From NCBI GenBank assembly GCA_963931445.1, contig OZ007016.1, positions 129,546 to 193,545 of the forward strand: a stretch of DNA of 64,000 nt, read 5' to 3'. Positions 2,500 through 40,589 of the stretch are shown here, one piece after another. The first letter of the stretch is position 1. Each line of letters starts with the position of its first letter. The stretch is from an uncultured Clostridia bacterium (lineage in GTDB: Bacteria; Bacillota; Clostridia; TANB77; CAG-508). The position numbers were made by a program, and so were the translations under genes. A model generated the notes under the pieces. That model had not been told where the DNA came from. It was given only the letters and a program-made list of their open reading frames with translations, and made no database searches.

Positions 2500-2668
2500 A
2501 CTAGTCTTTTTTTATTATTGTATAGGAAAAATCGACTTTTTACTTGATATTTCAGTATCTTTAACGATTTTTTCTATACAACAAGGTTAAGTTTCCTTGG
2601 GCTGTGCATATTTGCGAAGCAAAATGCTACAAAAGGCAAAGCCACTTTTCTTATTCAATAATTTAATT
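2500..2668 (-). repeat. structured intergenic repeat, copy A (full length, reverse orientation relative to copy D)
   Basis: Shares the blocks ttgtatagg-aaaaatcgac...gtcgattttt-cctatacaa, aaccttgttgtatag, ccaaggaaacttaacc and the hairpin gcattttgcttcgcaaatatgc with copies at 10790, 19125 and 40434. Confidence 0.7.
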
Positions 2669-6115: not shown

Positions 6116-6393
6116 AACATTCCTCCCATTCTTTTTTATTAATTCATAATTATTATAGACAAGTACTTTTTAGAACTATTTTTTTAATTTAATAAAATAA
6201 ATGAATTTATGGTCACTTTATTCTTATCTATTTTTAATACTATTTTTCTTTTGTATTTTCTGCTGGAAAGCTCATTTTACCTATATTTTCCATTTGACAA
6301 ATTACTATTTTCCGTATACAATTAAGAATGTATTATTAGATTTAAACATATTATTTTTATAATATGTTCTTAAATTTGAAAGGAAGAAATATA

Positions 6394-9300
6394 ATGAGCA
6401 ATTTATTACATATTGGATTAGATGTTGGTTCTACTACCGTAAAAATAGTTGTTATGGATAGTGAACTAAATACTATATATAGAAATTATCAAAGACATTT
6501 TTCAGATACTAAGAATACAGTTTGTAATGTATTAGAAGATTTGGCAGAAAAATACCCAAATTTTGAATTTACAATAGCTCTTACTGGTTCTGGTGCTATG
6601 TCTGCTGCAAAATTTTTGGATTTACCTTTTATTCAAGAAGTAGTTTCTTGCAAAAGAGCAGTAGAAAAATATATTCCTAAAACAGATGTAGTTATTGAAC
6701 TAGGTGGTGAAGATGCAAAAATAATTTATTTTGATAAATCTATTGAACAAAGAATGAATGGAACTTGTGCTGGCGGTACAGGTGCATTTATAGACCAAAT
6801 GGCTTCACTTTTAAATACAGATCCTACTGGTTTAAATGAGCTTGCTAAAAACTATAAAATGATATACCCTATAGCTTCTCGTTGTGGTGTATTTGCTAAA
6901 ACTGATATACAACCACTTTTAAATGAAGGAGCAGCTAAAGAAGATATTGCTGTATCTATTTTTCAAGCTGTTGTAAATCAAACTATTAGTGGACTTGCTT
7001 GTGGAAGACCAATTAGAGGAAATGTTGCATTTTTGGGTGGACCCCTTAATTATTTATCAGAATTAAGAAATAGATTTATAGAAACTCTAAAATTAAAAGA
7101 TGATCAGATAATTCTTCCAGAAGAAGCTCACCTTTTAGTTGCTAAGGGAGCTGCATTAGATTCTATAGATTCACATTCTATAACAGTAGAAAAATTAAAA
7201 AGTAAAATTGAAGTTTTAAAAGTCTCTCATGATGATACTTCAAATCCTTTAAGTCCATTATTTTCAATAGATGCAGATTATGAAGAATTTAAAAACAGAC
7301 ATAATAAAGATACTGTTGAAAAAAGAGATTTGTCTACTTTTGAAGGAGATTGCTATGTAGGAATAGATGCTGGTTCTACAACTACAAAATTAACTTTAAT
7401 TGATAGTGATGGAAAACTTTTATATTCACTTTATGGAAGTAATGAAGGAAATCCTCTTCAAAGTGTTATAAAAGCTCTTAAAAAATTATATTCTGTACTT
7501 CCAGAAAAAGCAGCAATTAGATATAGTGGTGTTACTGGTTATGGTGAAAAACTAATACAAACTGCTTTAAATGTAGATTTAAACGAAATTGAGACTATTG
7601 CACATTATACAGCTGCTAAAAAATTTATGCCAAATGTTACTAGTATTGTAGATATTGGTGGTCAAGATATGAAATACATAAAAATGAAAAATGGAGCAAT
7701 AGATAATATAATGCTTAATGAAGCTTGTTCATCAGGTTGTGGATCTTTTATTGAAACTTTTGCTAAAAGCTTAAATCTCTCAATAGAAGAGTTTGTAAAA
7801 TCTGCAATAGAAGCAAGAAGACCCGTAGATTTGGGTTCAAGATGTACAGTATTTATGAATTCTAAAATTAAACAAGCTCAAAAAGAAGGATATTCTGTAG
7901 GAGATATATCAGCAGGACTTTCTTATTCTGTAATTAAAAATGCAATTCAAAAAGTTATGAAAGTGAGAGATGTAAAAAAATTAGGTGCACATATAGTTGT
8001 ACAAGGTGGTACTTTCTATAATGATGCTGTACTTCGTGCATTTGAATTAATTGTTGGAAGAAATGTTGTAAGACCAGATATTGCAGGCCTTATGGGTGCT
8101 TATGGTGTTGCACTTTTAGCTAAAGAACAATATGAAGCAAATTTAGATATGGAGTATAAATCAACTATTACTAAACTCGAGGATTTAGATAACTTAAAAA
8201 TAGATATTTCTCATATTCGTTGTAATGGTTGTGAAAATCATTGCTTGCTTACTATTAATAAATTCAGTAATGGCACAAAATATATTTCTGGAAATCGTTG
8301 TGAAAAAGGTGCTGGAATTGTAGGTGGTGTAAACGAGCTCCCAAATTTAATAAAATATAAATATGAAAGAATTTTTGGTTATACTCCATTAGAAGAAAAA
8401 GATGCTCCAAGAGGTACTATTGGAATTCCTAGAGTCTTAAATATGTATGAAGATTATCCTTTTTGGTTTACATTTTTAACTAATCTAGGTTTTAGGGTAA
8501 TTCTCTCTGAAAAAAGTAATAGAAAAACTTATGAAAAAGGTATGGAATCTATGCCTTCTGAATCAGTTTGTTTTCCTGCTAAATTATCACATGGTCATAT
8601 AATTGGATTAATTAATAAAGGAATTAAAACTATATTCTACCCTTGTATGCCTTATTCTAGGAAGGAGTATAAAAAAGCTGATAATCACTATAATTGTCCT
8701 ATAGTTATATCTTATTCAGAAGTTTTAAAAAATAATGTAGAAGAAATAAAAGAAAAAAATATAAAATTTTTAAATCCTTTTTTACCTTTTGATGCTAAAA
8801 ATCTAGCAAAAACTATATTAGAGTTGCCAGAATTTAAGGAATACAATTTCACAAAGAAAGAATTAATGGATGCTGCAAAAAAAGCTGAGGAAGAATATCA
8901 AAACTGCAAAAATGATATTCATAAAAAAGGTCAAGAAACTCTTGAATATATAGAAAAAAACAATTTAAAAGGAATAGTCTTAGCAGGTCGTCCATACCAT
9001 GTGGATCCAGAAGTAAATCATGGAATAGATACTTTAATTACAAGTTTGGGCTTATGTGTTCTTACTGAAGATAGTATTTCTAATCAAACAGAAGTTAAAC
9101 GCCCAATAAGAGTTGTTGACCAGTGGGTTTTTCATGCAAGGCTTTATGCTGCTGCAGACTTTGTAGGAAAACATGATAATTTAGAATTAGTTCAATTAAA
9201 TTCTTTTGGTTGTGGTGTAGATGCAGTTACAACTGATCAGGTAGAAGAAATTTTATCAAGTTTTGGAAAAATGTACACATTAATAAAAATAGATGAAATA

Positions 9301-10716
9301 AATAATTTAGGCGCAGTAAGAATAAGAATTAGATCTCTTTTGGCAAGTATGAATAAGCGTCTTGCTAATAAAGAAAATCTAAAGGGCGATGGAAATTACG
9401 AAGTAACTAAAAAAATATTTACAAAAGATATGAAAAATGATTACACTATACTTATACCTCAAATGGCACCAATACATTTTGAATTATTAGAAGCAGCTGT
9501 TCGTTCTTCTGGATATAAAGTTGAATTATTAAGAGAATGCACAGAACATACAGTAGAAACTGGATTAAAATATGTAAATAATGATGCATGTTATCCATCA
9601 ATATTAGTAACTGGACAAATGATTGAAGCATTACAATCTGGAAAATATGATTTAAATAAAACAGCTTTAATAATGTCTCAAACAGGTGGAGGATGTAGAG
9701 CTACAAATTATATAGGATTTATTCGTAAAGCATTAAAAGATGCTGGATTTGAAAATATTCCTGTAATATCTTTTAATGTAGTTGGAATGGAAAAAATGCC
9801 TGGATTTAAAATAACTCTTCCTTTAATTGAAAGGTTATTAAAAATGGTAGTATATGCAGATTTATTGCAAAAAATGCTTACTAAAAACAGAGCTTATGAA
9901 GTTAATAAAGGAGAAACTCAAGCATTATTTGATTCATGGATGGAAAGATGCAAAAAATTATTAGAAAAATCAACAATGCAACAATTTAAACAAAGTATTT
10001 ATGACATAGTTAATGATTTTGAAAAAATAGAATTAGATACATCTATAGAAAAGCCTAAAGTTGGTATTGTTGGTGAAGTATTAATAAAATACCATCCTTT
10101 TGGAAATAATTTTATTGCAAATAAATTAGAAGAAGAAGGTGCAGAAGTTATTCTTCCTGATTTTATGGGATTTGTAAAATTTATAGCCACACATAAAATA
10201 ACCTTTAATCAGTTGATAAAGGTAGATAAATTTAAAGCTAAATTATTTAAAACTGCAATTAAATTAATAGATATATTAGAAAAAGATGCCAAAATAGCCT
10301 TATCGAATTCTAAAAAAGGTTATTTACCAACATGTGATATATGGGAATTAGAAAATAAAGTAAAAAATATACTTTCTATAGGAAATCAAACTGGAGAAGG
10401 ATGGTTTTTAACTGCAGAAATGATAGAATATATAGAGCATGGTATACCAAACATAGCTTGTGTACAACCTTTTGCTTGTCTTCCAAACCATGTTGTTGGA
10501 AAAGGCGTAATTAAAACAATTAGAGATTTATATCCTGAAGCTAATATATCACCTATAGATTATGATCCCGGTGCAAGTGAAGCAAATCAAACTAATAGAA
10601 TAAAATTGCTTATGACAGTAGCTAAGGATAATTTAAAGAAAAAAGAATTAGAAAAAACTGCTATAAATAACGAAAATATCAAAGGAAAAAATAAAACAAA
10701 AATAAAACAAAAATAA
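6394..10716 (+). CDS. fused 2-hydroxyacyl-CoA dehydratase activase-like protein: two BadF/BadG/BcrA/BcrD actin-fold ATPase domains followed by a DUF2229/HgdB-like dehydratase domain. The tool ORF opens at 6364; start taken at 6394 (MSNLLHIGLD), which follows SD gaaaggaag.
   Basis: Two ASKHA P-loops (LHIGLDVGSTTVKIVVMD and CYVGIDAGSTTTKLTLID). The Cys-rich C-terminal region is typical of the ~1400-aa CoA-substrate-specific enzyme activase fusions found in Clostridia. Confidence 0.7.
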   Translation: MSNLLHIGLDVGSTTVKIVVMDSELNTIYRNYQRHFSDTKNTVCNVLEDLAEKYPNFEFTIALTGSGAMSAAKFLDLPFIQEVVSCKRAVEKYIPKTDVVIELGGEDAKIIYFDKSIEQRMNGTCAGGTGAFIDQMASLLNTDPTGLNELAKNYKMIYPIASRCGVFAKTDIQPLLNEGAAKEDIAVSIFQAVVNQTISGLACGRPIRGNVAFLGGPLNYLSELRNRFIETLKLKDDQIILPEEAHLLVAKGAALDSIDSHSITVEKLKSKIEVLKVSHDDTSNPLSPLFSIDADYEEFKNRHNKDTVEKRDLSTFEGDCYVGIDAGSTTTKLTLIDSDGKLLYSLYGSNEGNPLQSVIKALKKLYSVLPEKAAIRYSGVTGYGEKLIQTALNVDLNEIETIAHYTAAKKFMPNVTSIVDIGGQDMKYIKMKNGAIDNIMLNEACSSGCGSFIETFAKSLNLSIEEFVKSAIEARRPVDLGSRCTVFMNSKIKQAQKEGYSVGDISAGLSYSVIKNAIQKVMKVRDVKKLGAHIVVQGGTFYNDAVLRAFELIVGRNVVRPDIAGLMGAYGVALLAKEQYEANLDMEYKSTITKLEDLDNLKIDISHIRCNGCENHCLLTINKFSNGTKYISGNRCEKGAGIVGGVNELPNLIKYKYERIFGYTPLEEKDAPRGTIGIPRVLNMYEDYPFWFTFLTNLGFRVILSEKSNRKTYEKGMESMPSESVCFPAKLSHGHIIGLINKGIKTIFYPCMPYSRKEYKKADNHYNCPIVISYSEVLKNNVEEIKEKNIKFLNPFLPFDAKNLAKTILELPEFKEYNFTKKELMDAAKKAEEEYQNCKNDIHKKGQETLEYIEKNNLKGIVLAGRPYHVDPEVNHGIDTLITSLGLCVLTEDSISNQTEVKRPIRVVDQWVFHARLYAAADFVGKHDNLELVQLNSFGCGVDAVTTDQVEEILSSFGKMYTLIKIDEINNLGAVRIRIRSLLASMNKRLANKENLKGDGNYEVTKKIFTKDMKNDYTILIPQMAPIHFELLEAAVRSSGYKVELLRECTEHTVETGLKYVNNDACYPSILVTGQMIEALQSGKYDLNKTALIMSQTGGGCRATNYIGFIRKALKDAGFENIPVISFNVVGMEKMPGFKITLPLIERLLKMVVYADLLQKMLTKNRAYEVNKGETQALFDSWMERCKKLLEKSTMQQFKQSIYDIVNDFEKIELDTSIEKPKVGIVGEVLIKYHPFGNNFIANKLEEEGAEVILPDFMGFVKFIATHKITFNQLIKVDKFKAKLFKTAIKLIDILEKDAKIALSNSKKGYLPTCDIWELENKVKNILSIGNQTGEGWFLTAEMIEYIEHGIPNIACVQPFACLPNHVVGKGVIKTIRDLYPEANISPIDYDPGASEANQTNRIKLLMTVAKDNLKKKELEKTAINNENIKGKNKTKIKQK

Positions 10717-10772: not shown

Positions 10773-10789
10773 TTTTTTTAGTCATAGAA

Positions 10790-10868
10790 GAAAAGTGTCT
10801 TCTCCAAATGAGCGTTTTGCTTTGCAAATACGCTCGTCCCAAGGAAACTTAACCTTGTTGTATAGAAA
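10790..10868 (+). repeat. structured intergenic repeat, copy B (partial: left half only)
   Basis: Contains gagcgttttgctttgcaaatacgctc + ccaaggaaacttaaccttgttgtataga, then stops at the boundary of the AT-rich macro-repeat. Confidence 0.65.
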
Positions 10869-10899
10869 AAATAAATACAAAATTAATTTTAAAAATAAA

Positions 10900-11835
10900 A
10901 AATTTAAAACTTCCTATTTTTTTATAAATTTTTATAAATATTTTTTAATTTATTTTTTAATTTTTTTTTAATTTTTTATTATATTCATTTTTACATTTAT
11001 TTTTTATTATTATTAATATAATTTAAAATTAATTATTTTTTATTATTTATTTTTTTATAAATATTTTTTAATTTTTTTATTCTATTTAATTAATTATATG
11101 TTTTTGTTTTAACAATTTTTCTTATTAATTTTTTTAACAGTTTTAAAACTATAACTTTCTTTATTTTAGCCTTAGGTTTGTCATTTAGGTAATTGTGTTA
11201 TTCTTTATATAAATATTTGCCATTTTAATTTTCAGTTGCTTTTCATAAACTTTATTAAAGTTATTTGGGTATTATCTTTATGTTTACTATGCTTCTTTTC
11301 AAAAATATTTTTGTTTATTTTTTTATTTATCAGTAATCCGTTATATTATTTTTAATAATATTTACTTTTTTTATTTATTTTATAAACAAAAGTATTCACA
11401 TTTTTGTTTACTTTTAATTATTTTTTTATTTATTTTTCTTAACTATTTTTCTTCTGTATATTAAATTTTAAGATTTTTATGCCTTTTTGACAATTTCTTA
11501 TTATTTTTTCTATTAGTTTTTTAAGATTTTAATATTTTATTTTTTACTATTTTTTATGGAACATATTTTTTATTTTTTAATTTTTTATTTATTAATTTAT
11601 TTATTTTTATTATTAATAATATATTTTAAATTAATTATTTATTTTATAATATTTTTTTAATAATTATTTTTATAAATATTTTTTAATTTATTTTTTAATT
11701 TTTTTTTAATTTTTTATTATATTTATTTTTACATTTATTTTTTATTATTATTAATATAATTTAAAATTAATTATTTTTTATTATTTATTTTTTTATAAAT
11801 ATTTTTTAATTTTTTTATTTTAATAAGTTTATATA
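10900..11835. repeat. extremely AT-rich noncoding macro-repeat, block R1 (~1.3 copies of a ~730-bp unit)
   Basis: The same long sequence, for example ...ttctatttaattaattatatgtttttgttttaacaatttttcttattaa...gccttaggtttgtcatttag..., recurs at 15100-16570. Internal recurrence period is about 748 bp. Confidence 0.85.
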
Positions 11836-11913
11836 ATTATATAAATTATTATTTTTTACTTGTTTTTTTTTATTATTCACGATATAATGTTATTTACTAA
11901 TAGGAGGTATAAC

Positions 11914-12468
11914 ATGCTACTAGGATTAGCTGGTGTTTCAGGAGTAGGAAAATCATTTTTTAAAGATAAACTAGTCGAAAAATTAAATTTTGAAAAGATT
12001 AAAATTATAACAACTCGTAAAATAAGAAATACTGAAAAAAATAATGAAGATAAAGTTTTTGTTACAAATAAAGATTTAGCCAATCTAAGAAATTCAAACA
12101 AACTTGCTTATGAATTTAATATGCTCGGAAATATTTATGCATATACAAATGAAGAACTTTTTTCTAATAAAAATACAGTTTTTGAATTACATTACAATAC
12201 AATATATGATTTTAAAAAAATCTGTCCAAATCTTTGTTCAATATATATTATGCCAAATAATATAAAAATACCAAAAGAACAAATAAAAAAAAGGCATTTA
12301 GATCCGGATACAGAAAAAAAACGATTACTAGAAATTGATGAACATTATAACAATATACTTTCAAATGAAAATTTAAGAAATCAATTTAATTATTTTTTTA
12401 AAAATAATTATGATAAAGAATCTGAAAATAAATTTATAAATTTAATTAAAGAATTAATAAATAACTAG
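11914..12468 (+). CDS. P-loop NMP-kinase-like protein (guanylate-kinase-like). The tool ORF opens at 11860; start taken at the ATG after SD taggagg.
   Basis: Walker A GVSGVGKS. A TTR(K) motif about 30 residues downstream (IITTRKIRNTE) resembles the guanylate kinase family. Confidence 0.45.
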   Translation: MLLGLAGVSGVGKSFFKDKLVEKLNFEKIKIITTRKIRNTEKNNEDKVFVTNKDLANLRNSNKLAYEFNMLGNIYAYTNEELFSNKNTVFELHYNTIYDFKKICPNLCSIYIMPNNIKIPKEQIKKRHLDPDTEKKRLLEIDEHYNNILSNENLRNQFNYFFKNNYDKESENKFINLIKELINN

Positions 12469-12480
12469 GAGTATGAAATT

Positions 12481-13315
12481 ATGGTTAAAAACTATTTTTC
12501 ACTTGATGAAGATTTTACAAAAATAATAATAAAATCATTGCCAAATAAGGAAATTATTAAAATAAAACCTATATCTACAGGTTGGACAAATATTGTTTTT
12601 GAAGTAACTACCAATTTACGGAAATTATTTTTTTAGATTTCCAAGGGATAACTTTTGGATTAGAACTATTGTAAAAGATTATGAGTTTTCTAAATACATA
12701 AATGGTAAGACTGATTTTAAAACTGTTGAACTTCATCTATTATATGATAACGGCAGACCGTATAGTATTCATAAAAAAATAGATGGAACTGTTTTAGCTG
12801 ATATAATGGATGACTTGTCTACTGAAGAAATTAAAATTGTGACAAAAGATATATCTAAATTTATGTATCAATTACATAATATCAAATTTCAAAATAATGA
12901 AGTATTTAACACCAAAAATATAGGTTTAAATTTAACCGATTTTTTAGATGAATTACTTGATTTACATGTATCACCAGAAGATAAAGTATTTTGGAAATAT
13001 GAGGAATTTAAAAAGAAAGATCATAATGTTCTTGTTCATGGTGATTTAAATTCAAGTAACATATTACTTGATGAAAATAAACATATTGCAGCTGTTATTG
13101 ATTTTGGTTTTGGAGGTTTTGGAAATCCATATTTTGATATAGCTCGTATTATCGGAAGATGCCCTTCTTCTTTTAAGAATGAAATTATTACAAGCTATGA
13201 ACAAATATCAAATAAACATTTAAATTTCCCTATCTTAAATACTGAAATTAAAATCTGGGATAATATAGACAATTCATATATTAACTATATGAGAAAAATA
13301 GGAATTTATAATTAA
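12481..13315 (+). pseudogene. aminoglycoside/choline-kinase-type phosphotransferase (APH family), frameshifted
   Basis: The first frame ends ...TGWTNIVFEVTTNLRKLFF* at 12634-12636. The +1 frame continues GNYFFRFPRDNFWIRTIV... to Brenner motif HGDLNSSNILLD and DFGFGG. A single-base frame change lies near the T-run at about 12620. Confidence 0.65.
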
Positions 13316-13340
13316 AGTAATACTTTTGTATTACTTTTTA
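13316..13340 (+). terminator. hairpin terminator after the APH pseudogene
   Basis: agtaatacttttgtattact followed by a T-run. Confidence 0.45.
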
Positions 13341-13513
13341 TTTTTATAGTATAAATATGTATAACTATATTTTTACTATAAATAATTTTTTAAAATATTA
13401 ATATTAAATTTTAAAAATCACAAACTTCTTTATTTTATAAATTTTTTATAACTACTTTTCTCTTTTTACAAAACAAAAAAAGATATGAAATCAATCTGTT
13501 TCATATCTTGTAA

Positions 13514-13604
13514 TGGCGGAAGCTGAGGGATTTGAACCCTCGCGGCCCTTACGAACCCTAACAGTTTAGCAAACTGTCCCCTTCAACCACTTGGGTAAGC
13601 CTCC
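13514..13604 (-). tRNA. tRNA-Ser (anticodon GCT)
   Basis: The reverse complement folds as ggaggcttacccaagtggttgaagggg...tttGCTaaa...long variable arm...ggttcaaatccctcagcttccgcca, with an encoded CCA. Confidence 0.85.
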
Positions 13605-13653
13605 ATATAATTATAGAAGCTAGATAATATCTCTTCTCTAACTTCTATTAATT

Positions 13654-13745
<92 letters not shown>

Positions 13746-13836
13746 AAGTCTTATTTTTGAAATAATGACAATATATATATTACCACATTTTTAATTGTAT
13801 TGTCAATAGAATTTGTTACAAATATTATACAATTTT

Positions 13837-15065
13837 GTATATGTGTCAATGATGTGAAACAAACTATTATAAAAAAATTGTAGTATATTGAATCTACTTA
13901 AGAAAAATATAATAAATTAACATTCCGCTTGGCTCCATGCATGACTTTATTACATTTTTCTTAAGTTTATAAATTTTATGCTACTGCTAATTCTAGTTCT
14001 TCCCTTTTTTCTTTTGGTGTTAAATATCCTAATACTGCCATTGGTATATTGTTTGATCTTTTTAAATATGCTTTTCCTTGCTTTATTAAGTCTTCTAAGC
14101 TATAGAATTTTAAATAACTATAAAATCTTTCATTATCATTTCTATGGCTTCTCTCTACTTTTCCATTATGTTCTGGTGTCCTTGGTCTTATCTTGTAATG
14201 CCTTATTTCTAATTTCTTCAATAATGTATCCATTGGATGTTCTTTCTTTACTTTTGCTTGATTGTAGCTAAATTCTGTTCCATTATCTGTTTGTATTGTC
14301 TTTGGTTTATAGCCAAAGTACTCTACGCATCTTTTTACAAAATCTACTGTATTTGTTGGAGTTAACTCTTCATACCACCATAAAAATCTTTCTCTACTTG
14401 CTTCATCTATGCATGTATATTGATAATATTGTTTATCTTCTGGCAATTTTACTTTGCATTCATTTGGTACATATTTTGCATCTATTTGCCATTTTTCTCC
14501 TATATTTTTTGGCGTTTCATATTTTTTATTATGTTTCTTTTTGGATGTATTTTTTATATTCATTCCCTTGTAAAACTTTATATTTAGCCTTTTCATTACT
14601 CTATACAATGATGTTATTTTCCTTGTATATCCTTTTTCTCTCTTTAGCTTCGCCCATAATTCGCATAGCGTTATTCTTGGGTTTCTTCTTACATAATTTC
14701 TTATCCAACGTATTTCTTGATTTGTGTGCGATTTTGGATGGCGTGTTTTGGGTTTATGGCTCTTATCTTCTAGGCTTTCTTTTGTTCCATTGTACTTTTT
14801 TAACCATCTCCATAATGAAATTCTTGATATATGATATTTTCTACATGTATACTCTATATCTCCGTTATTCATATATGTTTTTACTGCATTTTCTTTTGTT
14901 TTTAAATCATGTGGTAAATATCTCTTGGTATTTTTTGAATTTTGTGTTATACTATCCATAAGTGATTCAAGTCCTTTCGTATAATTTTTATTTTCAACAA
15001 TTCAATTATACTACTTGAATCACTTTTTTTCTACTTCTTTTGTTTCACATCAATTGTAACACTAC
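13837..15065 (-). mobile_element. insertion sequence (~1229 bp) with ~28-bp imperfect terminal inverted repeats ending in ...gatgtgaaac, flanked by perfect 27-bp direct repeats (13810-13836 and 15066-15092)
   Basis: Left end gtatatgtgtcaatgatgtgaaac; right end gtttcacatcaattgtaacactac. Direct repeat aatttgttacaaatattatacaatttt lies on both sides. Contains a single transposase ORF. Confidence 0.75.
13976..14959 (-). CDS. DDE transposase with an integrase (rve) catalytic core and an N-terminal HTH (IS481/IS3-superfamily-like)
   Basis: Catalytic residues in WQIDAKYV, IQTDNGTEF and HNGKVERSHR. 327 aa. Confidence 0.7.
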   Translation of the reverse strand: MDSITQNSKNTKRYLPHDLKTKENAVKTYMNNGDIEYTCRKYHISRISLWRWLKKYNGTKESLEDKSHKPKTRHPKSHTNQEIRWIRNYVRRNPRITLCELWAKLKREKGYTRKITSLYRVMKRLNIKFYKGMNIKNTSKKKHNKKYETPKNIGEKWQIDAKYVPNECKVKLPEDKQYYQYTCIDEASRERFLWWYEELTPTNTVDFVKRCVEYFGYKPKTIQTDNGTEFSYNQAKVKKEHPMDTLLKKLEIRHYKIRPRTPEHNGKVERSHRNDNERFYSYLKFYSLEDLIKQGKAYLKRSNNIPMAVLGYLTPKEKREELELAVA

Positions 15066-15099
15066 AATTTGTTACAAATATTATACAATTTTATAATTT

Positions 15100-16800
15100 T
15101 CTTTTTTATCTTTTATAATGTAAAAATAATATAATTATTTTATTTATTAATTTAATTATTTATTTTATAATATTTTTTTTATAATTATTTTTATAAATAT
15201 TTTTTAATTTTTTTTTAATTTTTTTTTAATTTTTTATTATATTTATTTTTACATTTATTTTTTATTATTATTAATATAATTTAAAATTAATTATTTTTTA
15301 TTATTTATTTTTTTATAAATATTTTTTAATTTTTTTATTCTATTTAATTAATTATATGTTTTTGTTTTAACAATTTTTCTTATTAATTTTTTTCACAGTT
15401 TTAAAAATATAACTTTCTTTATTTTAGCCTTAGGTTTGTCATTTAAGCAATTGTGTTATTCTTTATATAAATATTTGCCATTTTAATTTTCAGTTGCTTT
15501 TCATAAACTTTATTAAAGTTATTTGATTATTATCTTTATGTTTACTATGCTTCTTTTCAAAAAAATTTTTGTTTATTTTTTTATTTATCACTAATCCGTT
15601 ATATTATTTTTAATAATATTTACTTTTTTTATTTATTTTATAAACAAAAGTATTCACATTTTTGTTTACTTTTAATTATTTTTTTATTTATTTTTCTTAA
15701 CTATTTTTCTTCTGTATATTAAATTTTAAGATTTTTATGCCTTTTTGACAATTTCTTATTATTTTTTCTATTAGTTTTTTAAGATTTTAATATTTTATTT
15801 TTTACTATTTTTTATGAAACATATTTTTTTATATTTTAATTATTTATTTATTAATTTATTTATTTTTATTATTAATAATATATTTTAAATTAATTATTTA
15901 TTTTATAATATTTTTTTTATAATTATTTTTATAAATATTTTTTAATTTTTTTTTAATTTTTTATTATATTTATTTTTACATTTATTTTTTATTATTATTA
16001 ATATAATTTAAAATTAATTATTTTTTATTATTTATTTTTTTATAAATATTTTTTAATTTTTTTATTCTATTTAATTAATTATATGTTTTTGTTTTAACAA
16101 TTTTTCTTATTAATTTTTTTCACAGTTTTAAAAATATAACTTTCCTTATTTTAGCCTTAGGTTTGTCATTTAAGCAATTGTGTTATTCTTTATATAAATA
16201 TTTGCCATTTTAATTTTCAGTTACTTTTCATAAACTTTATTAAAGTTATTTGATTATTATCTTTATGTTTACTATGCTTCTTTTCAAAAAAATTTTTGTT
16301 TATTTTTTTATTTATCACTAATCCGTTATATTATTTTTAATAATATTTACTTTTTTTATTTATTTTATGTTTCTAAATTTTCATATTTTTGTTTACTTTT
16401 TATTATTTTTTTATTTGTTTTTCTTAACTATTTTAATCCTTAATATTAATTTAAATTTTTTTCATACCTTTTTGACAATTTTTTATTATTTTTTCTATTA
16501 GTTTTTTAAGATTTTAATATTTTATTTTTTAGTATTTTTTATGGAACATATTTTTTTATATTTTAATTATTTATTTATTAAATTAATTATTTTTATTTAA
16601 AATTATATTATTAAATTAAATATTAATTTAATAATATAATTTTAATAATTATTTCAATAAATATTTATTAATTTATTTTTTAATTTTTATTTACTATTAA
16701 TTATTTATTATTTATTTATTACATTTATTTATTATTTATTTTATAATGTACAAAAAAATAATTTTTTATATATTAATATTTTGCATATATAAAAAATTAT
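15100..16800. repeat. extremely AT-rich noncoding macro-repeat, block R2 (two full ~727-bp units at 15125-16570 plus a diverged partial unit)
   Basis: The marker gccattttaattttcag recurs at about 15477 and about 16204, giving a period of 727 bp. Nearly identical to block R1. Confidence 0.85.
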
Positions 16801-16807
16801 TTTTTTA

Positions 16808-17308
16808 TTATTTTATATTATTTATTGCTTTATTGATAGCTTCTTTTTCTTCTTCTGATAATATATGTTTTGAAATTCCTTTTTCTATAGGTTTTGCATA
16901 TATATTTGAATTGTCTCTAGCATATATTCCACTTAACACTACTCCAGTGTTATAATCATCTAATAATGCTATAGAAAAACTTAAATCACTACCTACATCT
17001 TTAAATGCATTATATCTTACAATTCCTATTTTTTGAGTACATCTTTTAATATTATCATCCATTACTTTACAATATGATATTATTTCTTCATTCTTTTTTT
17101 CTAATTTTTCTACCTTTATTATATAGTCTCTCATAATTTCTTCTATATTATTTCCATTACCTAATTTATTCATAAATTTAGAATAACTTGTTCGTAATTT
17201 TTTTAAATTTATTACATTTATAATATATAGCACACATAATACATCTACTAATATAAATAATATAAAGAAAAAAAATTCTGATTTAAAAAAATTAAAAAAT
17301 ATATCCAC
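16808..17308 (-). CDS. DUF4446-family protein (conserved partner downstream of parB in Clostridia). GTG start.
   Basis: N-terminal TM then a coiled-coil region. Position immediately after spo0J. Confidence 0.5.
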   Translation of the reverse strand: MDIFFNFFKSEFFFFILFILVDVLCVLYIINVINLKKLRTSYSKFMNKLGNGNNIEEIMRDYIIKVEKLEKKNEEIISYCKVMDDNIKRCTQKIGIVRYNAFKDVGSDLSFSIALLDDYNTGVVLSGIYARDNSNIYAKPIEKGISKHILSEEEKEAINKAINNIK

Positions 17309-17331: not shown

Positions 17332-18177
17332 TTATTTAATTAATCCTAATATTCTTTCTAAATCATCGTATGAAGAATATTGAATAATTATTTTTCCAGA
17401 CTTCTTTTTAGCATCTAATTTTACCTTTGTCCCAAAAAATCCTTGAAAAGAATCTTCTATATCTCTATAAATCGCTTCTAACTTAGGATTATTTTTTTCT
17501 GATACTTTAGTATTTTTTATTTTTCTTTCTATATCTCTAACAGATTCTCCTCTTTCTATAATATTTAGTGCAGCTTTATATTGTCTTTCAGGATCTTCTA
17601 TAACAACTAAATTTCTACAATGCCCTTCTGTAAGTTTTCCTTCTTGTGCTAATTCTATTACTCGAGGATCTAAGTTTAATATTCTTACTGAATTTGCAAT
17701 ATTGCTTCTACTAATTCCAATTGAATCTGCTAACTCTTTTTGTGTCATTCCATAATCATCTATTAACTCTTTTAAACCTTTCGCTTTATCTATTGGATTC
17801 AAGTCAACTCTTTGTAAATTTTCAATTAATGCTATTTCTTTATTATTTCTTTGAGTAATATCATCTTTTATTATACATGGCATTTCAGTTAATCCAGCTT
17901 TTTTTGCCGCTCTCCATCTTCTTTCTCCTGCAACAATTTCGTAATAACTATCTTTTTTATTAACTATAATAGGCTGTAATACTCCATAAGTTTTTATTGA
18001 ATTTGCAAGTTCATCTAATGCTTCTTCATCAAATTTTTTTCTTGGTTGATCATTATTTGGTTCTATTTCTATTATTTTTATTTTGTGAATTTTATCAAAT
18101 GAATTTTCTTCTTCTTTTTGTAATAAATTTTCAGTAAATAATGCATCTAATCCTTTTCCTAATCCTGTTTTTTTCAT
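17332..18177 (-). CDS. spo0J: chromosome partitioning protein ParB/Spo0J. The tool ORF opens at 18195; start taken at MKKTGLGKGL, which follows an SD.
   Basis: GLGKGLDALF, ParB box IVAGERRWRAAKKAGL and an HTH. Confidence 0.9.
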   Translation of the reverse strand: MKKTGLGKGLDALFTENLLQKEEENSFDKIHKIKIIEIEPNNDQPRKKFDEEALDELANSIKTYGVLQPIIVNKKDSYYEIVAGERRWRAAKKAGLTEMPCIIKDDITQRNNKEIALIENLQRVDLNPIDKAKGLKELIDDYGMTQKELADSIGISRSNIANSVRILNLDPRVIELAQEGKLTEGHCRNLVVIEDPERQYKAALNIIERGESVRDIERKIKNTKVSEKNNPKLEAIYRDIEDSFQGFFGTKVKLDAKKKSGKIIIQYSSYDDLERILGLIK

Positions 18178-18240
18178 ATTAATCATTCCTTGCATATATA
18201 TTTAGGTTTTTATTATGGTTTTACCTATAAACCTTATATT

Positions 18241-19033
18241 TTATAATGCATGTTTTCCTCTTCCATCTGATTCATTTTTCTTTAAAAATTCTTTTACAAA
18301 TTTTTCATAGCTTTTAGCACCTTTAGACCTTGGATCATATATGCTTATAGGCATTCCATAACTTGGTGCTTCACTAAGTTTTACATTCCTAGGAATAACA
18401 TTTTTATATACTTTATCATTAAAATATTTTTTAACTTCTTTTACAACTTGATTTGATAGATTAGTTCGTACATCATACATTGTAAGTAATGCACCTTCGA
18501 TTTCAATATCTTTATTTAGGTGTTTTTTTACTAAGTTAATGGTATTTAATAATTGGCCTAACCCTTCTAAAGCGTAATATTCGCATTGTACTGGAATTAA
18601 TACACTATTTGAAGCTGTAAAAGCATTTAATGTAATTAATCCTAAAGATGGTGGACAATCTATAATAATAAAGTCATAATCATTTTTAATTTTATCCAGT
18701 TTTTCCTTTAGTCTATGTTCTCTTGACATTACAGAAACAAGTTCAACCTCAGCCCCAGCAAGATTTATATTCGATGGACATAAATTCAAGTTTTTAATGT
18801 TTGTCTTTTTGACAACATCACTTGCTTCTATTTCATTTATCAAAATATCATATACTGATAGTTCTACATCATTTCTATCAATTCCTACTCCACTAGATGC
18901 ATTTCCTTGAGGATCTGCATCTATTAGTAATACTTTTTTACCTTTTTTGGCAAGTATAGTACTTAAATTAACTGAAGTTGTAGTCTTTCCTACTCCTCCC
19001 TTTTGATTTGCTACTGAAATAATTTTACCCATA
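18241..19033 (-). CDS. soj: chromosome partitioning ATPase ParA/Soj. The tool ORF opens at 19089; start taken at MGKIISV, which follows SD aggagg.
   Basis: Deviant Walker A KGGVGKTTTSVNLS. Confidence 0.9.
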
Positions 19034-19124
19034 TTTATGCCTCCTAAAAATAACATATTAATAATATAAAATAATTTATAATATGTCAATAATATTTTTA
19101 TTTTTATTTTTATTTTTATTTTTT

Positions 19125-19450
19125 TATTGTATAGGAAAAATCGACTTTTTTCTTGATATCTCAGTATTCTTAAGGATTTTTGCTATACAACAAGGTTAGG
19201 CATCCTTAGACTGTCCGAGCGAAGCGAGTGACATGTATTTCGCACTTGCTCCAGAGGCATACTTGGCGAAATGCCTTTCTTATAATTAGCTTTATTATTA
19301 TTTGTTTAACTTAGATATAAGAAAAATAGCTTAGTAACATGCGCATTTTACTTTACAAATATGTAGAATCAGTAGGAACTTAACCTTGTTCTATAGTCAA
19401 AATTGGTCGATTTTTCTTTTGAAAATAAAATATTATTTTCACTTTAAGTT
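19125..19450 (+). repeat. structured intergenic repeat, copy C (composite; a full copy plus an extra right-end fragment) lying between rsmG and soj
   Basis: ttgtataggaaaaatcgactttt...cttgatatctcagta...ctatacaacaaggtta. A GC-richer variant hairpin region. A second aaccttgttctatag...gtcgattttt fragment at 19380-19420. Confidence 0.65.
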
Positions 19451-26339: not shown

Positions 26340-26390
26340 ATTTTGTGGATTATTTGATATTATATAACAATATTGTGGATAATTATGTGT
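26340..26390 (+). promoter_or_regulatory. DnaA boxes upstream of dnaA (oriC upstream part)
   Basis: tgtggataa (reverse complement of the TTATCCACA consensus) at 26379-26387. A one-mismatch box tgtggatta lies about 30 bp upstream. Confidence 0.6.
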
Positions 26391-26450
26391 ATAATTTTAT
26401 ACATCATATATATATAACTATATCATAATATTTTGGAAGGATTGAAAATA

Positions 26451-27791
26451 ATGCCAAAAGAAGAATTGAATGAACTTTTAACAAAAGCAAAAGAACTTTT
26501 AAAAAATGAAGTTACAAAAATTGCCTATGAGACTTGGATAAGAGATTTAGATATTGAAAGTGTTGAAAATAATAACATTGTTTTAATTGCTAATAATGCA
26601 TTTCAAAAAGAATCTATACTTTCAAGATATCATGATTTATTTAAAAATACTTTTAAATATATTACCAATAGAAATTGTGAAATAACTGTAATTCTTAAAG
26701 ATGATGTTTCTGAAGAAGAATTGCAAGTTGCTAAACAATTATCTAATACACCTAATGCTTATCCAAATTCAACATTAAACCCTAAATATACATTTGAAAG
26801 TTTTGTTGTTGGTAATAATAATAGATTTGCACATGCTGCTGCTCTTGCAGTAGCAGAAGCTCCAGCAACTGCATATAATCCACTTTTTATTTATGGTGGT
26901 GTAGGGCTTGGAAAAACACATTTAATGCAAGCAATTGCAAATGAAATATTATTAAATAATAGAAATGCTAAAATTTTATATGTTACTTCAGAAACATTTA
27001 CTAATCAACTAATTAATGCTATTAAAGATGGAAAATGTGAAATGTTTAGAAATAAGTATAGAAATATAGATGTTCTTTTAATTGATGATATTCAATTTAT
27101 AGCTGGAAAGGAAAGAATTCAAGAAGAATTTTTCCACACTTTTAATACATTACATGAAAATGGAAAACAAATTATTCTTTCTAGCGATAAACCTCCTAAA
27201 GATATAAATCTAATAGAAGATAGACTAAAATCTAGATTTGAATGGGGGTTAATAGCTGATATTTCTAATCCAGATTATGAAACAAGATTAGCAATTCTTA
27301 GAAAGAAAGCTCAATTAGATAGCATAATAATTGACGATGAAATCTTAAGTGATATAGCTACTAAAATAGATTCAAACATAAGAGAATTAGAAGGAATTCT
27401 TAATAAACTAATTGCTAATGCTTCATTAACAAACTGTCAAATAACTATGGAAATGGCTGAGAAATCGATTAATGATGTTATTACAAAAAAAGATAAAGTA
27501 TTATCATTAGAGTTAATACAAGAAACAATTTCAAAATATTTTAATATAACAGTAGAAGAGTTAAAGGGTGTTAAAAGGTCAAATGATGTTACTTTTCCAA
27601 GACAAATTGCAATGTATTTATGTAGAAATGTTGCACAATTGCCATTAACTAAGATAGGAGCTGGTTTTGGAAAAAGAGATCATACAACTGTAATACACGC
27701 ATGTTCAAAAATAGAAAAAGAAATACAAAATAATGTAAGTACAAAAAGAATTGTGGAAAGTGTGAAAAACATATTACTAAATGACAAGTAA
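26451..27791 (+). CDS. dnaA: chromosomal replication initiator DnaA. The tool ORF opens at 26433; start taken at MPKEEL, which follows SD ggaagga.
   Basis: AAA+ Walker A GGVGLGKTHL. C-terminal DnaA-box-binding helix. Confidence 0.95.
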   Translation: MPKEELNELLTKAKELLKNEVTKIAYETWIRDLDIESVENNNIVLIANNAFQKESILSRYHDLFKNTFKYITNRNCEITVILKDDVSEEELQVAKQLSNTPNAYPNSTLNPKYTFESFVVGNNNRFAHAAALAVAEAPATAYNPLFIYGGVGLGKTHLMQAIANEILLNNRNAKILYVTSETFTNQLINAIKDGKCEMFRNKYRNIDVLLIDDIQFIAGKERIQEEFFHTFNTLHENGKQIILSSDKPPKDINLIEDRLKSRFEWGLIADISNPDYETRLAILRKKAQLDSIIIDDEILSDIATKIDSNIRELEGILNKLIANASLTNCQITMEMAEKSINDVITKKDKVLSLELIQETISKYFNITVEELKGVKRSNDVTFPRQIAMYLCRNVAQLPLTKIGAGFGKRDHTTVIHACSKIEKEIQNNVSTKRIVESVKNILLNDK

Positions 27792-27879
27792 TTGTGTATA
27801 ACCACTTTGAATAACTTTTATAAAAAATATGTTTGATAAAAAAGTGTTTGATTAAAAGTTGTTCAATCTTTACTTACGG

Positions 27880-28104
27880 AACAGCAAGAAAGACTATCCA
27901 CATATATATGTGAAAAGTCTGTTAATAAACTGTTGATAAGTTAGTTATACACATTTCAAAAAATTTTTTGTAGATAACTTTTTAATTTATCCACTAAGTT
28001 ATACACATAAATATTATTAGGGAGATAAGGTTTCCACATAGTTTTCCACATTATCCACATAACCTACTACTACTACTACTAAAATTATTTATATTATATA
28101 AAAA
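27880..28104 (+). promoter_or_regulatory. oriC downstream part: DnaA-box cluster, a (CTA)6 DnaA-trio element (28064-28081) and an AT-rich DUE (28082-28104)
   Basis: Boxes ctatccaca (27895), ttatccact (27990) and ttatccaca (28051-28059), then cc + ctactactactactacta, then aaaattatttatattatataaaaa immediately before the dnaN SD. Confidence 0.65.
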
Positions 28105-30786: not shown

Positions 30787-32706
<1,920 letters not shown>

Positions 32707-32710
32707 ATAA

Positions 32711-32772
32711 AAAGAAAAGTAAATAAGAAAAATAAACATTAAAAAATAATTCTTATTTACTTTTCTTTTTGT
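32711..32772 (+). terminator. long AT-rich inverted repeat after gyrB (putative terminator)
   Basis: aaagaaaagtaaataagaa...ttcttatttacttttcttttt. Confidence 0.4.
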
Positions 32773-33134
32773 ATAAAAATGTCGAAAAAGAGAACACGAT
32801 TTTTCTTGAAATGACAATAAAAATGTGTTATAAAAATAATGAAAAAGGATTTTAGTTAAGTATGTTTTCTAATAATATCGAAATTTATATTATTCTTTTT
32901 GTTTTGACAATCTAACATAGAATAACTTTATAGGTTAAAGTTGTTAATTTCATATACAATAAACAATTATTTCAAAAAAATTATTTTCTATATTTTTTAT
33001 CAAAAAATTTGTTAAAAAAATAAATTAACTTAATTCTTGGATATAATATTAATTATTCGCCAAAAATAAAAAATCAAATAAATTTTAAATATTTAAATAA
33101 ATAATAAAAGACTATTTAAAAGGAGGAAAATAAA

Positions 33135-33707
33135 ATAAATAAAAAAAATAATAATTCTACTCAAAATTGGTTAAAAATAGATAAAATATTAGAAAATGGA
33201 ATAATAAAAACAAAAGAAAATAAATATTTAAAAATAATAAAAATAAGTCCAATTAATTTTAATTTAAAATCTGAATTAGAAAAAGAAGCTATTTTAAATT
33301 CATATAAATTATTTTTAAAAACTTGTAATTTTAATTTCCAAATTTTAATTCAAAGTAATAAAGAAGATTTATCAAATTATTTTTCTAAAATAAAAAGTAA
33401 TTCTGTACTAGAAGAAAAAAATATTCAAGAGATATCAAATAAATATATAGAATATGTAAAAAAATTAAATAATAGTAAAAAGTCATCTTCAAAAAATTAT
33501 TATATTATTATAGATTATAATAATAGCAATAATGAAACATTAGATATTCAATCTCATGCTATTGAAAATTTAAATAATAAGTATTTTAAAATAAAAGATG
33601 GATTATCAAGATGTGGGAATATAGCAGTAGATATAAATGATCAAGAACAAATAAAAAATATATTATTTTCTTTTTTTAATACCAGAATTTATTTTAATAA
33701 CAAATAA
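33135..33707 (+). CDS. VirB4/TrsE/TcpF-like conjugative ATPase, N-terminal fragment (190 aa). No ATG in frame. ATA at 33135 lies 8 nt after SD aggagg.
   Basis: Hand translation ...NKKNNNSTQNWLKIDKILENGIIKTKENKYLKIIKISPINFNLKSELEKEAILNSYKLFLKTCNFNFQILIQ... is the typical VirB4 N-terminus. Absent from the ORF track because it has no canonical start. Same reading frame as the C-terminal part. Confidence 0.5.
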   Translation: MNKKNNNSTQNWLKIDKILENGIIKTKENKYLKIIKISPINFNLKSELEKEAILNSYKLFLKTCNFNFQILIQSNKEDLSNYFSKIKSNSVLEEKNIQEISNKYIEYVKKLNNSKKSSSKNYYIIIDYNNSNNETLDIQSHAIENLNNKYFKIKDGLSRCGNIAVDINDQEQIKNILFSFFNTRIYFNNK

Positions 33708-33881
33708 AAAATTATATATAAAAAATAATATTAAATAAATTATTTATTAAATATTATTTTATTAAATAATAAAATAAAAATATTAAATAAATAATATTAA
33801 AAATAAAATAAAAAATAATAATAAAAGGTTTATAGATATACCCATTATAAAAAATCTAAATATATAATATAAGGTAAATAA

Positions 33882-35696
33882 ATGAATAAAAAAAATAAAC
33901 AAAAATTAAATTTTTTAGAAGGAACAGTTTCTAATAATGATTTTTTAGCACCATCATATATCAATTTATCTAATCCAAAATATATAGAAATAGATAATGT
34001 TTATTTTTCATCAATTTTAATAATAAATTATTACAGAGAACAAAATGAATTGATATTAAAATCACTTATAGATACCAATATAGATATAAATATTTCTATT
34101 TTTTATGAAAAACAAGATAATTATAAAGCAATAAGAGAATTAACATATCATATAGGAAATGTTGGTGCAGATTTAAAAACAAGTAATCAAAATAAACAAA
34201 ATATAGATATTGTAGCTTTTACATATAATGATGCTAAATATATTAGAAAAGAATTACAAATAAATAATGAGGATTTATATTATTTATACATTTATATTAA
34301 TACATACTCACAAGATTTAAAGGAATTAGAAAATACACTAAACAAAATTGAAGGAATATTAGAAGGTAGAGGACTAAATATTAGAAGAGCATATTTTAGA
34401 CAAGAGCAAGCATATAAAGCTTGTTTGCCATTAATGGAAAATAATAAAATTTTAAAAGAAGTTGCTAAAAGGAATGTATTAACAAGCGGACTTATTTCCA
34501 CATATCCTTTTAGTTCTTCAGCAATTTTTGATGAAAATGGAATATTTAGTGGAATAAATATATACAATAATTCATTAATATTTATTGATAGATACAATAC
34601 TCAAAAATACAAAAATGCAAATATGTGTATTTTTGGTACATCAGGTGCTGGAAAATCTTTTTATACAAAATTATTGATTTTAAGATATAGATTATTAGGA
34701 ATAGAGCAATATATTATAGATCCAGAAAGAGAGTATAACAATTTATGTAAAAATTTAAATGGAGCACTTTTAAAAATAGGCCCTAGTTCTAATACTTATA
34801 TAAATATATTTGATATAAGAAAAGAAAGTTTAGAAGATGAAGAACAAGGTTATTTAGCAAATAAAATTAGTAAATTAATGGGCTTTTTTAATCTTATTTT
34901 TGGAAAAATAAATGAAGAAGAAAGGGCTATTTTAGAAGAAAAAATAATAGAATTATATGAAATTAAAAATATTAACTTTGATGATAAAAGTCTATATAAA
35001 GAGGTAAATTATAGTACAGGAATAGAACTTATTTTTAAAGAAAGTAGAGATATGCCAATTTTAGAAGACTTTTATAATATTTTAGATAAAGATGAAAAAA
35101 CAAAAATATTTAAAATAAAATTAATACCATTTATAAAAGGGTCACTAAAATTTTTTAATAATTACACAAATATAGAATTAAATAATAAATTAATTGTTGC
35201 TGATGTATATGAATTAGGAGAAGAAAATTTAAAATATGGCATGTATTTATTTACGGATTTATTTTGGGACAAAATAAAAAAAGATAGAAAAATAAAAAAA
35301 GCTATTTATTTAGATGAAATATGGAGACTAATTGGCGTAACTTCGAATAAAGATGTTGCAAGTTTTATATATAAAATATTTAAAACTATTAGAAAATATG
35401 GTGGTAGTAGTGTTGCAATAACGCAGGATATATCTGATATTTTCAGTTTAGAAAATGGAAGTTATGGAAAAAGTATTTTAAATAATTCTAGTATAAAAAC
35501 TTTTTTTGCATTAGAAGAAGAAAATATAAAAATATTGGAAAAATACACTAATTTATCAGAAAAAGAGAAAATAGAAATCAAATCTTTAAAAAGAGGAGAG
35601 TGTCTGACATTTGTAGGAGATGAACATATTTTAAATAGAATTTGTGTAGCAGATTTTGAAAGAGAAATAATAGAAAATAAAAATAATAGTATATAA
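33882..35696 (+). CDS. VirB4/TrsE-like conjugative transfer ATPase, C-terminal two-thirds (604 aa)
   Basis: Walker A GTSGAGKS, IIDPEREY and the Walker B region AIYLDEIW. Confidence 0.7.
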   Translation: MNKKNKQKLNFLEGTVSNNDFLAPSYINLSNPKYIEIDNVYFSSILIINYYREQNELILKSLIDTNIDINISIFYEKQDNYKAIRELTYHIGNVGADLKTSNQNKQNIDIVAFTYNDAKYIRKELQINNEDLYYLYIYINTYSQDLKELENTLNKIEGILEGRGLNIRRAYFRQEQAYKACLPLMENNKILKEVAKRNVLTSGLISTYPFSSSAIFDENGIFSGINIYNNSLIFIDRYNTQKYKNANMCIFGTSGAGKSFYTKLLILRYRLLGIEQYIIDPEREYNNLCKNLNGALLKIGPSSNTYINIFDIRKESLEDEEQGYLANKISKLMGFFNLIFGKINEEERAILEEKIIELYEIKNINFDDKSLYKEVNYSTGIELIFKESRDMPILEDFYNILDKDEKTKIFKIKLIPFIKGSLKFFNNYTNIELNNKLIVADVYELGEENLKYGMYLFTDLFWDKIKKDRKIKKAIYLDEIWRLIGVTSNKDVASFIYKIFKTIRKYGGSSVAITQDISDIFSLENGSYGKSILNNSSIKTFFALEEENIKILEKYTNLSEKEKIEIKSLKRGECLTFVGDEHILNRICVADFEREIIENKNNSI

Positions 35697-35807
35697 ATGT
35701 TAATTAAAAAATTTTATTTTTTAATATAATGGAAGTTAATATAATATAATACAGAATAATGTCAAATATAAAAAATATTTTACATTAAAAGAAAGGGTGA
35801 AATTAAT

Positions 35808-37067: not shown

Positions 37068-37137
37068 AAAATATTTAGTATATTTAACTATTCTATATAA
37101 AATAAATAAATTTAATATAAAAGGAAGGATGATAAAT

Positions 37138-40580: not shown

Positions 40581-40589
40581 TGAAAATTT

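Follow-up and report, generated by a model that had tools for sequence, protein, structure and literature searches.

In an uncultured gut Clostridia bacterium, known from a metagenome-assembled genome (MAG), we found an extremely AT-rich tandem repeat with a unit of about 0.7 kb close to the origin of replication. The window in which it lies, that is, the whole stretch of DNA analysed here, is 64,000 nt long (contig OZ007016.1, positions 129,546 to 193,545) and represents the oriC region. With roughly even confidence, we read the repeat as a non-coding, satellite-like macro-repeat occupying a variable zone between a parA-parB-DUF4446-tRNA-Ser cluster and a convergent activase gene. Related species have arrays at the same spot that are similar in kind but unrelated in sequence, and the element therefore looks like bacterial satellite DNA. 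As far as sequence comparison can tell, the data favour an array of this kind.

Self-BLAST of the window recovered the repeat copies at E = 0. The reference unit, copy B (15187-15913), is 727 bp long with a G+C (GC) content of 9.9%. A further full copy, A, lies at 10928-11654 (98.1% identity to B) and is followed by a partial copy, A′ (11666-11842), with 95% identity across the first 171 nt of the unit. Copy C (15914-16637) is also full, with 94.0% identity to B and 92.5% to A, and copy D (16639-16825) is a decayed partial copy of about 77% identity. These copies form two blocks. Block 1 (10894-11842; 8.5% GC) holds ~1.3 units, made up of a lead sequence (10894-10927), A and A′. Block 2 (15095-16825; 8.8% GC) holds ~2.4 units, made up of a lead sequence (15095-15186) resembling the unit tail, then B, C and D. 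The mean GC of the window is 23.4%, and the forward strand is ~62% T in block 1 and ~61% T in block 2. All copies are in direct orientation and the full ones are 92.5-98% identical. B directly abuts C at 15913/15914, and start-to-start spacings of 727 and 738 bp define a head-to-tail tandem. Within the 64 kb, unit copies are confined to the two blocks, which share 906 bp at 96.8% identity as direct repeats offset by about 4.26 kb.

Each unit consists of ~300 bp of near-pure A/T low-complexity DNA and a ~430-bp core at roughly 13% GC, which holds the G/C-containing words. Sub-repeats of 11-12 bp, about 64 bp and about 123-138 bp are nested in the A/T part below the 727-bp period, and such a hierarchy of periods is typical of satellites grown by slippage. 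A 21-mer, TTTATAAATATTTTTTAATTT, occurs on the forward strand in eight exact copies (at 10931, 11054, 11669, 11792, 15190, 15312, 15928 and 16039), two per unit and 111-123 bp apart. It is found in the arrays only and is species-specific. No open reading frame (ORF) of at least 50 aa lies wholly inside either block, the longest within a unit being 44 aa, and the two array gaps (1128 and 1806 bp) are the longest non-coding gaps of the window, all others being at most 629 bp. An earlier sequence-only reading had proposed a ~730-bp ultra-AT-rich macro-repeat without ORFs, present as ~1.3 copies and as ~2 tandem copies plus a decayed one in the same orientation; self-BLAST and the ORF search agree with it. 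It had also argued that the unit is more than a simple microsatellite, which the conserved G/C-containing core bears out, and that the two direct blocks could recombine, which in principle their length, identity and spacing would allow.

Errors are common in AT-rich low-complexity repeats and the window comes from a metagenome assembly, and it had been suggested that the structure could be an artefact of collapsed or mis-joined low-complexity reads. Besides the window's own contig (L001, 100% identity) there is L002, assembled from long reads of another sample, which matches the window at 99.8% over 20 kb with an identical repeat structure and so provides independent confirmation of the tandem copies. 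The locus is carried on seven long contigs in all. Moreover, short-read contigs reach into the repeat from both sides: L003-L006 run from parB and stop at 16634-16785, and the first bases of L071 and L072 fall within the end of block 1. Breaks at both block edges are the behaviour expected of a true repeat, and short-read MAGs of other species hold analogous arrays. We therefore give next to no credence to an artefact.

For comparison with other species, related loci were examined around parB/DUF4446, the scope being this locus in each genome. Ultra-AT stretches (at least 300 bp with <13% GC) occur downstream of DUF4446 in 22 of the 38 loci that have at least 300 bp there, and make up 31,975 of 143,558 bp (22%) of the 6 kb examined. 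In the 10 kb on the parB-upstream side they occur in 1 of 47 loci (400 of 470,000 bp, 0.09%). In many loci these stretches are tandem arrays. The complete HiFi chromosome OZ006978.1 (locus L029; ParB 86%) carries a 5.6-kb non-coding array with 0-21% GC per 200 bp and a ~706/1462-bp period, lying between the tRNAs and the activase gene, with no kinase genes there. In locus L010 the unit is ~1.05 kb long and present at least 6.5 times. L023 has a two-block layout like that of the window, with blocks 84% identical to each other and no insertion sequence (IS). L036, L055, L067 and L007 each have their own period, from ~170 to ~900 bp, the smallest units (~170-420 bp) being those of L067 and L036. 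Across species, array length ranges from 0.4 to over 7 kb, the unit from about 170 to 1460 bp and GC from 2 to 17%, and arrays may precede the tRNA pair, follow it or flank it on both sides. Without exception it is the sense strand of parB, also the leading strand, that is A-rich. L026 and L027 have no arrays; both flanking genes are retained there, and patatin, AIM24 or other genes take the place of the arrays.

Whether a locus has arrays is unrelated to its background GC, which is 0.276 with arrays and 0.282 without (p = 0.85). AT mutation pressure alone is thus no explanation, and we rejected it as the sole cause. Moreover, 19 of 47 related short-read MAG contigs end within about 1.1 kb past DUF4446. 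The arrays break short-read assemblies at the origin and so make the locus invisible in most public genomes of the clade, where its study is possible only in long-read assemblies.

Whilst position is shared, sequence is not. A hidden Markov model built from three window units and searched with nhmmer against the arrays of other species gave E >= 1, no better than reversed controls. Copies are alike within a genome (92.5-98% in the window, 84% between the L023 blocks) and unlike between species. G/C-containing 9-mers common to the window and other arrays were weakly above shuffles in some species only. A unit 20-mer had no match in 185,579 species genomes; its single metagenome match (L068, 37% GC) has no other likeness to the window and was dismissed as chance. 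The sole sequence word common to the window arrays and those of other species is an 11-mer, CTTTTTGACAA, found once per unit on the forward strand (11483-11493, 15741-15751 and 16468-16478). Arrays in 7 of 16 species contain it, on the T-rich strand and in one orientation throughout. Across 100 local shuffles the largest sharing of any 11-mer averaged 2.8 species with a maximum of 5, against 7 for CTTTTTGACAA. A perfect 5-5-5 palindrome, TTGTCAAAAAGACAA, lies at 18792-18806 in the parA coding sequence and has an equivalent site in about 25 related loci; similar sequences also stand upstream of mnmG, and its half-site is shared with the array motif. We rejected this TTGTC-N5-GACAA palindrome as a binding site, since it lies within parA and the arrays hold the half motif only. 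Its conservation is probably that of codons.

We then asked whether the arrays belong to a known class of element. A coding or pseudogene origin was rejected, as there are no ORFs and tblastn with patatin, AIM24 and other genes that relatives carry in the interval gave nothing in the window arrays; a weak match of 27 residues in the L023 array (E = 0.06) was not significant. A structured RNA was rejected too, Rfam finding tRNAs only and folding being no better than in shuffles (z = -0.89 and -0.23). No terminators were found in the arrays. DnaA boxes (TTATCCACA, at most one mismatch) are missing between 5745 and 21984, hence in and beside the arrays, and cluster at 26344-26394 and 27793-28059, so that the arrays are neither oriC nor a second origin. 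The canonical 16-bp parS site (TGTTNCACGTGAAACA) has no match with up to three mismatches in the 64 kb, from which the hexamer CACGTG is also absent, though parA and parB look intact. A parS array was rejected, as neither parS nor its half-sites occur in the arrays. Among related loci, the exact parS pattern TGTTNCACGTGNAACA occurs in 1 of 61 (L053), and several relatives have degenerate 16-mers resembling parS close to the mnmE-mnmG spacer. A miniature inverted-repeat transposable element (MITE) or other dispersed mobile repeat was rejected as well, given that within the 64 kb copies are restricted to the two blocks and that the unit 20-mer is absent from the species genomes searched.

A satellite-like origin would account for these features as follows. 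The long A/T tracts would supply homology for replication slippage and unequal crossing-over, by which cores plus tracts would be duplicated head to tail. Gene conversion may then homogenise the copies within a genome, also across the 3.25-kb tRNA/kinase segment that separates the blocks, while the sequence would diverge fast between species. Copy A resembles B, 3.5 kb away, more closely (98.1%) than the tandem neighbours B and C resemble each other (94.0%), which points to recent exchange between the blocks. Together with the two-block state of L023, built from an unrelated unit, this closeness is the signature of concerted evolution. Recombination between block 1 and block 2 would delete tRNA-Ser(UGA) and tRNA-Ser(GCU), and selection against that loss may stabilise the two-block layout. 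The arrays seem to encode no sequence-specific product, be it a protein, a structured RNA or a DnaA or ParB site. Any effect would therefore be physical, and the arrays are the least stable duplex of the 64-kb origin region: the four least stable 300-bp windows all lie in them (GC 1.3-3.7%; stability about -0.90 kcal/mol per bp), with -1.10 and -1.12 kcal/mol per bp for the two oriC spacers. T/A tracts appear to be phased at ~11.75-12 bp in block 1 (z = 5.6), block 2 (z = 10.5) and L029 (z = 7.5), values that repeated copies inflate. Phasing is absent in L010 and L067, the period in the window exceeds 10.5 bp, and the ~12-bp signal probably reflects a 12-mer micro-repeat as much as curvature.

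Several observations sit uneasily with a purely satellite-like array, besides the restriction of the comparison to a single locus per genome. Non-coding DNA of 1-7 kb persists at one locus in species with 61-89% ParB identity, which is unexpected for neutral DNA, and it does so in genomes of roughly 1.7 Mb with a deletion bias. Array presence does not follow background GC (p = 0.85). The strand asymmetry is fixed, the A-rich strand always being the parB sense strand, and the presence of CTTTTTGACAA in 7 of 16 species in a fixed orientation hints at a constrained site.

The surroundings of the arrays are those of a chromosomal origin. The minus strand reads rpmH, rnpA, yidD, yidC, jag, mnmE, mnmG, rsmG, parA, parB and DUF4446. 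On the plus strand dnaA (26433-27791) is followed by ORFs whose order and sizes fit dnaN and recF and by gyrB, so named from its translation. The DnaA-box clusters flank dnaA and delimit oriC (26344-28059), and the cumulative GC-skew minimum lies there, at about 26 kb. The arrays are about 9.6-15.5 kb to the left of oriC, in the gap between parA-parB-DUF4446 and the convergent activase gene. By Pfam the latter (6364-10716, plus strand, 1450 aa) is a BcrAD/BadFG-type CoA-enzyme activase with DUF2229. Conserved as the left boundary of the interval, it runs head-on to replication. The conserved right boundary is the DUF4446 gene (16808-17308, minus strand), behind which lie parB (17332-18195) and parA (18241-19089) on the same strand, both chromosomal, ParB being of Spo0J type with ParB_N, HTH_ParB and ParB_C domains. 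Block 2 adjoins the DUF4446 stop codon, its last ~18 bp overlapping the 3′ end of the ORF. Block 1 starts about 180 bp past the activase gene and ends 72 bp ahead of a guanylate-kinase-like (GK-like) gene. DUF4446 was considered as a DNA binder and set aside, there being no PDB homologue and the single-sequence AlphaFold model being too poor to use (mean predicted local distance difference test score 48.7).

Two other features of the window were seen in passing. A dispersed repeat of about 100-150 bp with 85-89% identity occurs at 2507-2656 (+), 10788-10872 (-), 19106-19214 (+) and 40428-40587 (-). All four copies are intergenic, one of them at the left edge of block 1, and they contain an internal inverted repeat (TTGTATAG...CTATACAA). 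The repeat has no Rfam match and could be a MITE, a small RNA or a terminator module. Further to the right, gyrB (30793-32706) and gyrA (37995-40433) are split by a very AT-rich insert of ~5.3 kb (32707-37995), which may be a mobile-element remnant. From their translations alone, we take its ORFs to include a VirB4/TraE-type ATPase (33882-35696) and a ParA/CpaE-type ATPase (35967-37067), besides an ORF of 242 aa. The ORF at 35967-37067 is intact at 10.6% GC, which shows that genes here can be almost as AT-rich as the arrays.

The position beside the partition operon also suits a functional explanation, which we regard as possible though not probable. Here the arrays would be a chromosome-organising element of the origin domain that acts through AT content, bendability and melting, not through sequence. 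Possible roles are a loading platform for nucleoid proteins or SMC, a centromere-like anchor beside parAB-DUF4446, or a supercoil sink or insulator, which would sit between the convergent parAB/tRNA and activase transcription units. Such an element is consistent with the retention of position, composition and strand while sequence turns over, as with centromeric satellites, and with placement directly downstream of parB-DUF4446; in the F plasmid, sopC follows sopB. It would also fit with the arrays being the least stable DNA of the origin region, with the ~11.75-12-bp tract phasing in the window (z = 10.5 for block 2) and L029 (z = 7.5), and with the lack of parS (up to three mismatches) and CACGTG in the 64 kb around oriC. 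The independence from background GC, the shared 11-mer and the persistence across 61-89% ParB identity point the same way. However, one 11-mer aside, no repeated protein-binding motif is common across species. Array length (0.4 to over 7 kb), unit (about 170-1460 bp) and side of the tRNA pair all vary, L026 and L027 do without arrays despite the same flanking genes, and tract phasing is missing in L010 and L067. Moreover, lack of parS from 64 kb is too ordinary to count as evidence. A stronger version, in which the arrays of low-GC gut Clostridia are a bacterial counterpart of a centromeric satellite, is drawn by analogy and is doubtful; such a counterpart would organise or anchor the origin domain physically or via an AT-binding protein, possibly replacing or supplementing parS.

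The segment enclosed by the two blocks measures 3.25 kb and its contents are as the sequence-only reading had listed them: a GK-like gene, an APH pseudogene, two tRNA-Ser genes and an IS. The GK-like gene (11914-12468, plus strand, 184 aa) lies directly downstream of block 1 and is followed by an APH-family phosphotransferase gene (12481-13315, plus strand), frameshifted by one extra T in a T-run near 12625-12636. The GK-like/APH pair is also present in three other species, L010, L023 and L065, and a fourth, L018, has APH only, the GK-like gene not having been located there. The APH gene is intact in L023 (277 aa). It is split into a 51-aa N-terminal fragment and a separate remainder in L010, which is another species, and in L071 and L072 as well. 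The T-run could be a recurrent slippage site or a case of phase variation instead of a sequencing error. On the minus strand follow tRNA-Ser(gct) (13514-13604) and tRNA-Ser(tga) (13654-13745), the latter with its own promoter-like site, TTGACA-18-TAATAT with TG, at 13806-13777.

Since CTTTTTGACAA includes TTGACA, the arrays might serve as regulatory or promoter regions, with CTTTTTGACAA as a -35 box and the repeats as an UP-element or curved DNA for the GK-like/APH operon or tRNA-Ser. The -35 hexamer is part of the only conserved motif and the tracts appear phased. Moreover, the distance from a motif copy to the GK-like gene downstream is 430 bp in the window and about 270 bp in L023, and in L018 the motif is on the upstream side of the kinase genes. 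Nevertheless, we consider this improbable. In no species does either strand show a consistent -10 box 16-18 bp away from the motif. Promoter-like strings, which the sequence-only reading had pointed out, number 61 in the arrays against 71.5 +/- 9 in shuffles and are thus not enriched. Some blocks with the motif face nothing but the 3′ end of DUF4446, and tRNA-Ser has a good promoter of its own. Lastly, L029 has a 5.6-kb array without kinase genes, and a promoter needs no kilobases.

The IS (13837-15065, minus strand) is 1229 bp long and inserted at the tRNA-proximal edge of block 2. Its transposase has 327 aa with rve and HTH domains (13976-14959), and its ends form inverted repeats of about 27 bp that match imperfectly. 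A 27-bp target duplication, AATTTGTTACAAATATTATACAATTTT, stands in two identical direct copies on either side, at 13810-13836 and 15066-15092. Target duplications of 16-28 bp are known from the IS1202 group, whose transposases are much larger at 441-457 aa (PMC10132070). A transposase 43% identical to that of the window IS sits in the same interval of L067. The sole two parS half-site octamers of the 64 kb, TGTTTCAC and GTGAAACA, lie one at each end of the IS.

tRNA genes are common integration sites, and the arrays could be the relic of a mobile element, either an integrated plasmid origin with iterons, as had been proposed from the sequence, or an island at tRNA-Ser bounded by the repeats. 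The tRNA-Ser genes offer a potential integration site and the gene content of the interval varies (kinases, patatin, AIM24, IS). Furthermore, the 21-mer occurs eight times, and the ultra-AT insert between gyrB and gyrA, with its VirB4-like and ParA-like genes, is in the same window. However, no integrase, rep or relaxase gene was found at the locus, where the neighbours by Pfam are the activase, GK-like kinase, APH, IS transposase, DUF4446, ParB and ParA, and BLAST gave no similarity to 72,556 plasmids or 50,697 phages. The 21-mer spacings of 111-123 bp and ~600 bp are part of the macro-unit, unlike closely spaced iterons of ~17-22 bp, and the arrays lack DnaA boxes. None of the 185,579 species genomes contains the unit word, its lone metagenome match being chance, and no residual protein similarity is left in the arrays. 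The adjacent parAB is the chromosomal operon, beside rsmG, mnmG, mnmE and dnaA. A tRNA-linked island was rejected on similar grounds. The repeats are about 900 bp, not short att sites, and the tRNAs lie wholly inside the segment. Of 20 related loci scanned, the 19 that hold a tRNA all have the pair tRNA-Ser(tga) and tRNA-Ser(gct) behind parB, encoded on its strand and mostly directly downstream of DUF4446; the remaining one, L007, has no tRNA gene within its 14.2 kb. In at least 10 species the interval ends at the activase gene. The tRNA pair is thus syntenic across the clade, as are the DUF4446 and BcrAD flanks in relatives, and of the enclosed segment the IS alone is clearly inserted. A mobile relic is largely refuted by these data and we hold it to be very unlikely.

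Non-coding satellites of bacteria are already known and are usually short. A survey of bacterial satellites found that only 2.7% exceed 1.5 kb, that most are short and that those with long units appear mostly coding; the intergenic long-repeat satellites of Leptospira interrogans are one of its examples (Subirana and Messeguer 2019, PMC6749651). The arrays described here resemble prokaryotic non-coding satellites in being chromosomal head-to-tail repeats that evolve by duplication and homogenisation. They differ in unit size (0.7-1.05 kb, with some as small as ~170-420 bp), array length (5.6 to over 7 kb) and composition (2-17% GC), and in occupying one origin-proximal locus across the clade instead of being scattered. 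In the literature searched there was no account of arrays with kilobase units and 2-17% GC fixed beside parAB/oriC across a clade.

Other known systems are similar in part. The partition centromeres of plasmids, such as sopC of F and parC of R1, have units of about 11-43 bp, each with a ParB or ParR binding site. As with these, a tandem array directly flanks a parA-parB operon; unlike these, the units are ~700 bp long and lack a shared binding motif, and ParB is, judging from its sequence, of the canonical chromosomal Spo0J type. AT-rich (peri)centromeric satellites of eukaryotes likewise form tandem arrays with concerted evolution, fast turnover between species and a conserved position. They belong to another domain of life and reach megabases, compared to kilobases here, so that the likeness is by analogy only, and we know of no epigenetic centromere concept in bacteria. 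The DNA unwinding element of oriC, which is tens of bp long, and sites of stress-induced duplex destabilisation share the extremely low duplex stability near the origin. The arrays, however, extend over kilobases, about 10 kb from oriC, with no DnaA boxes in or beside them. Lastly, tRNA-linked genomic islands also have direct repeats bracketing tRNA and accessory kinase genes, whereas here there is no integrase, the ~900-bp repeats overlap no tRNA 3′ end and the tRNA pair is ancestral in place.

Kilobase non-coding tandem arrays are rare in bacteria, and a fixed position by the partition operon and origin in many species with complete turnover of sequence is a pattern otherwise tied to eukaryotic centromeric satellites. 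Neutral arrays would offer a clean bacterial case in which satellite DNA arises, evolves in concert and persists in small, AT-driven genomes. Functional ones would represent a sequence-independent, structure-based element in the organisation of the origin domain.

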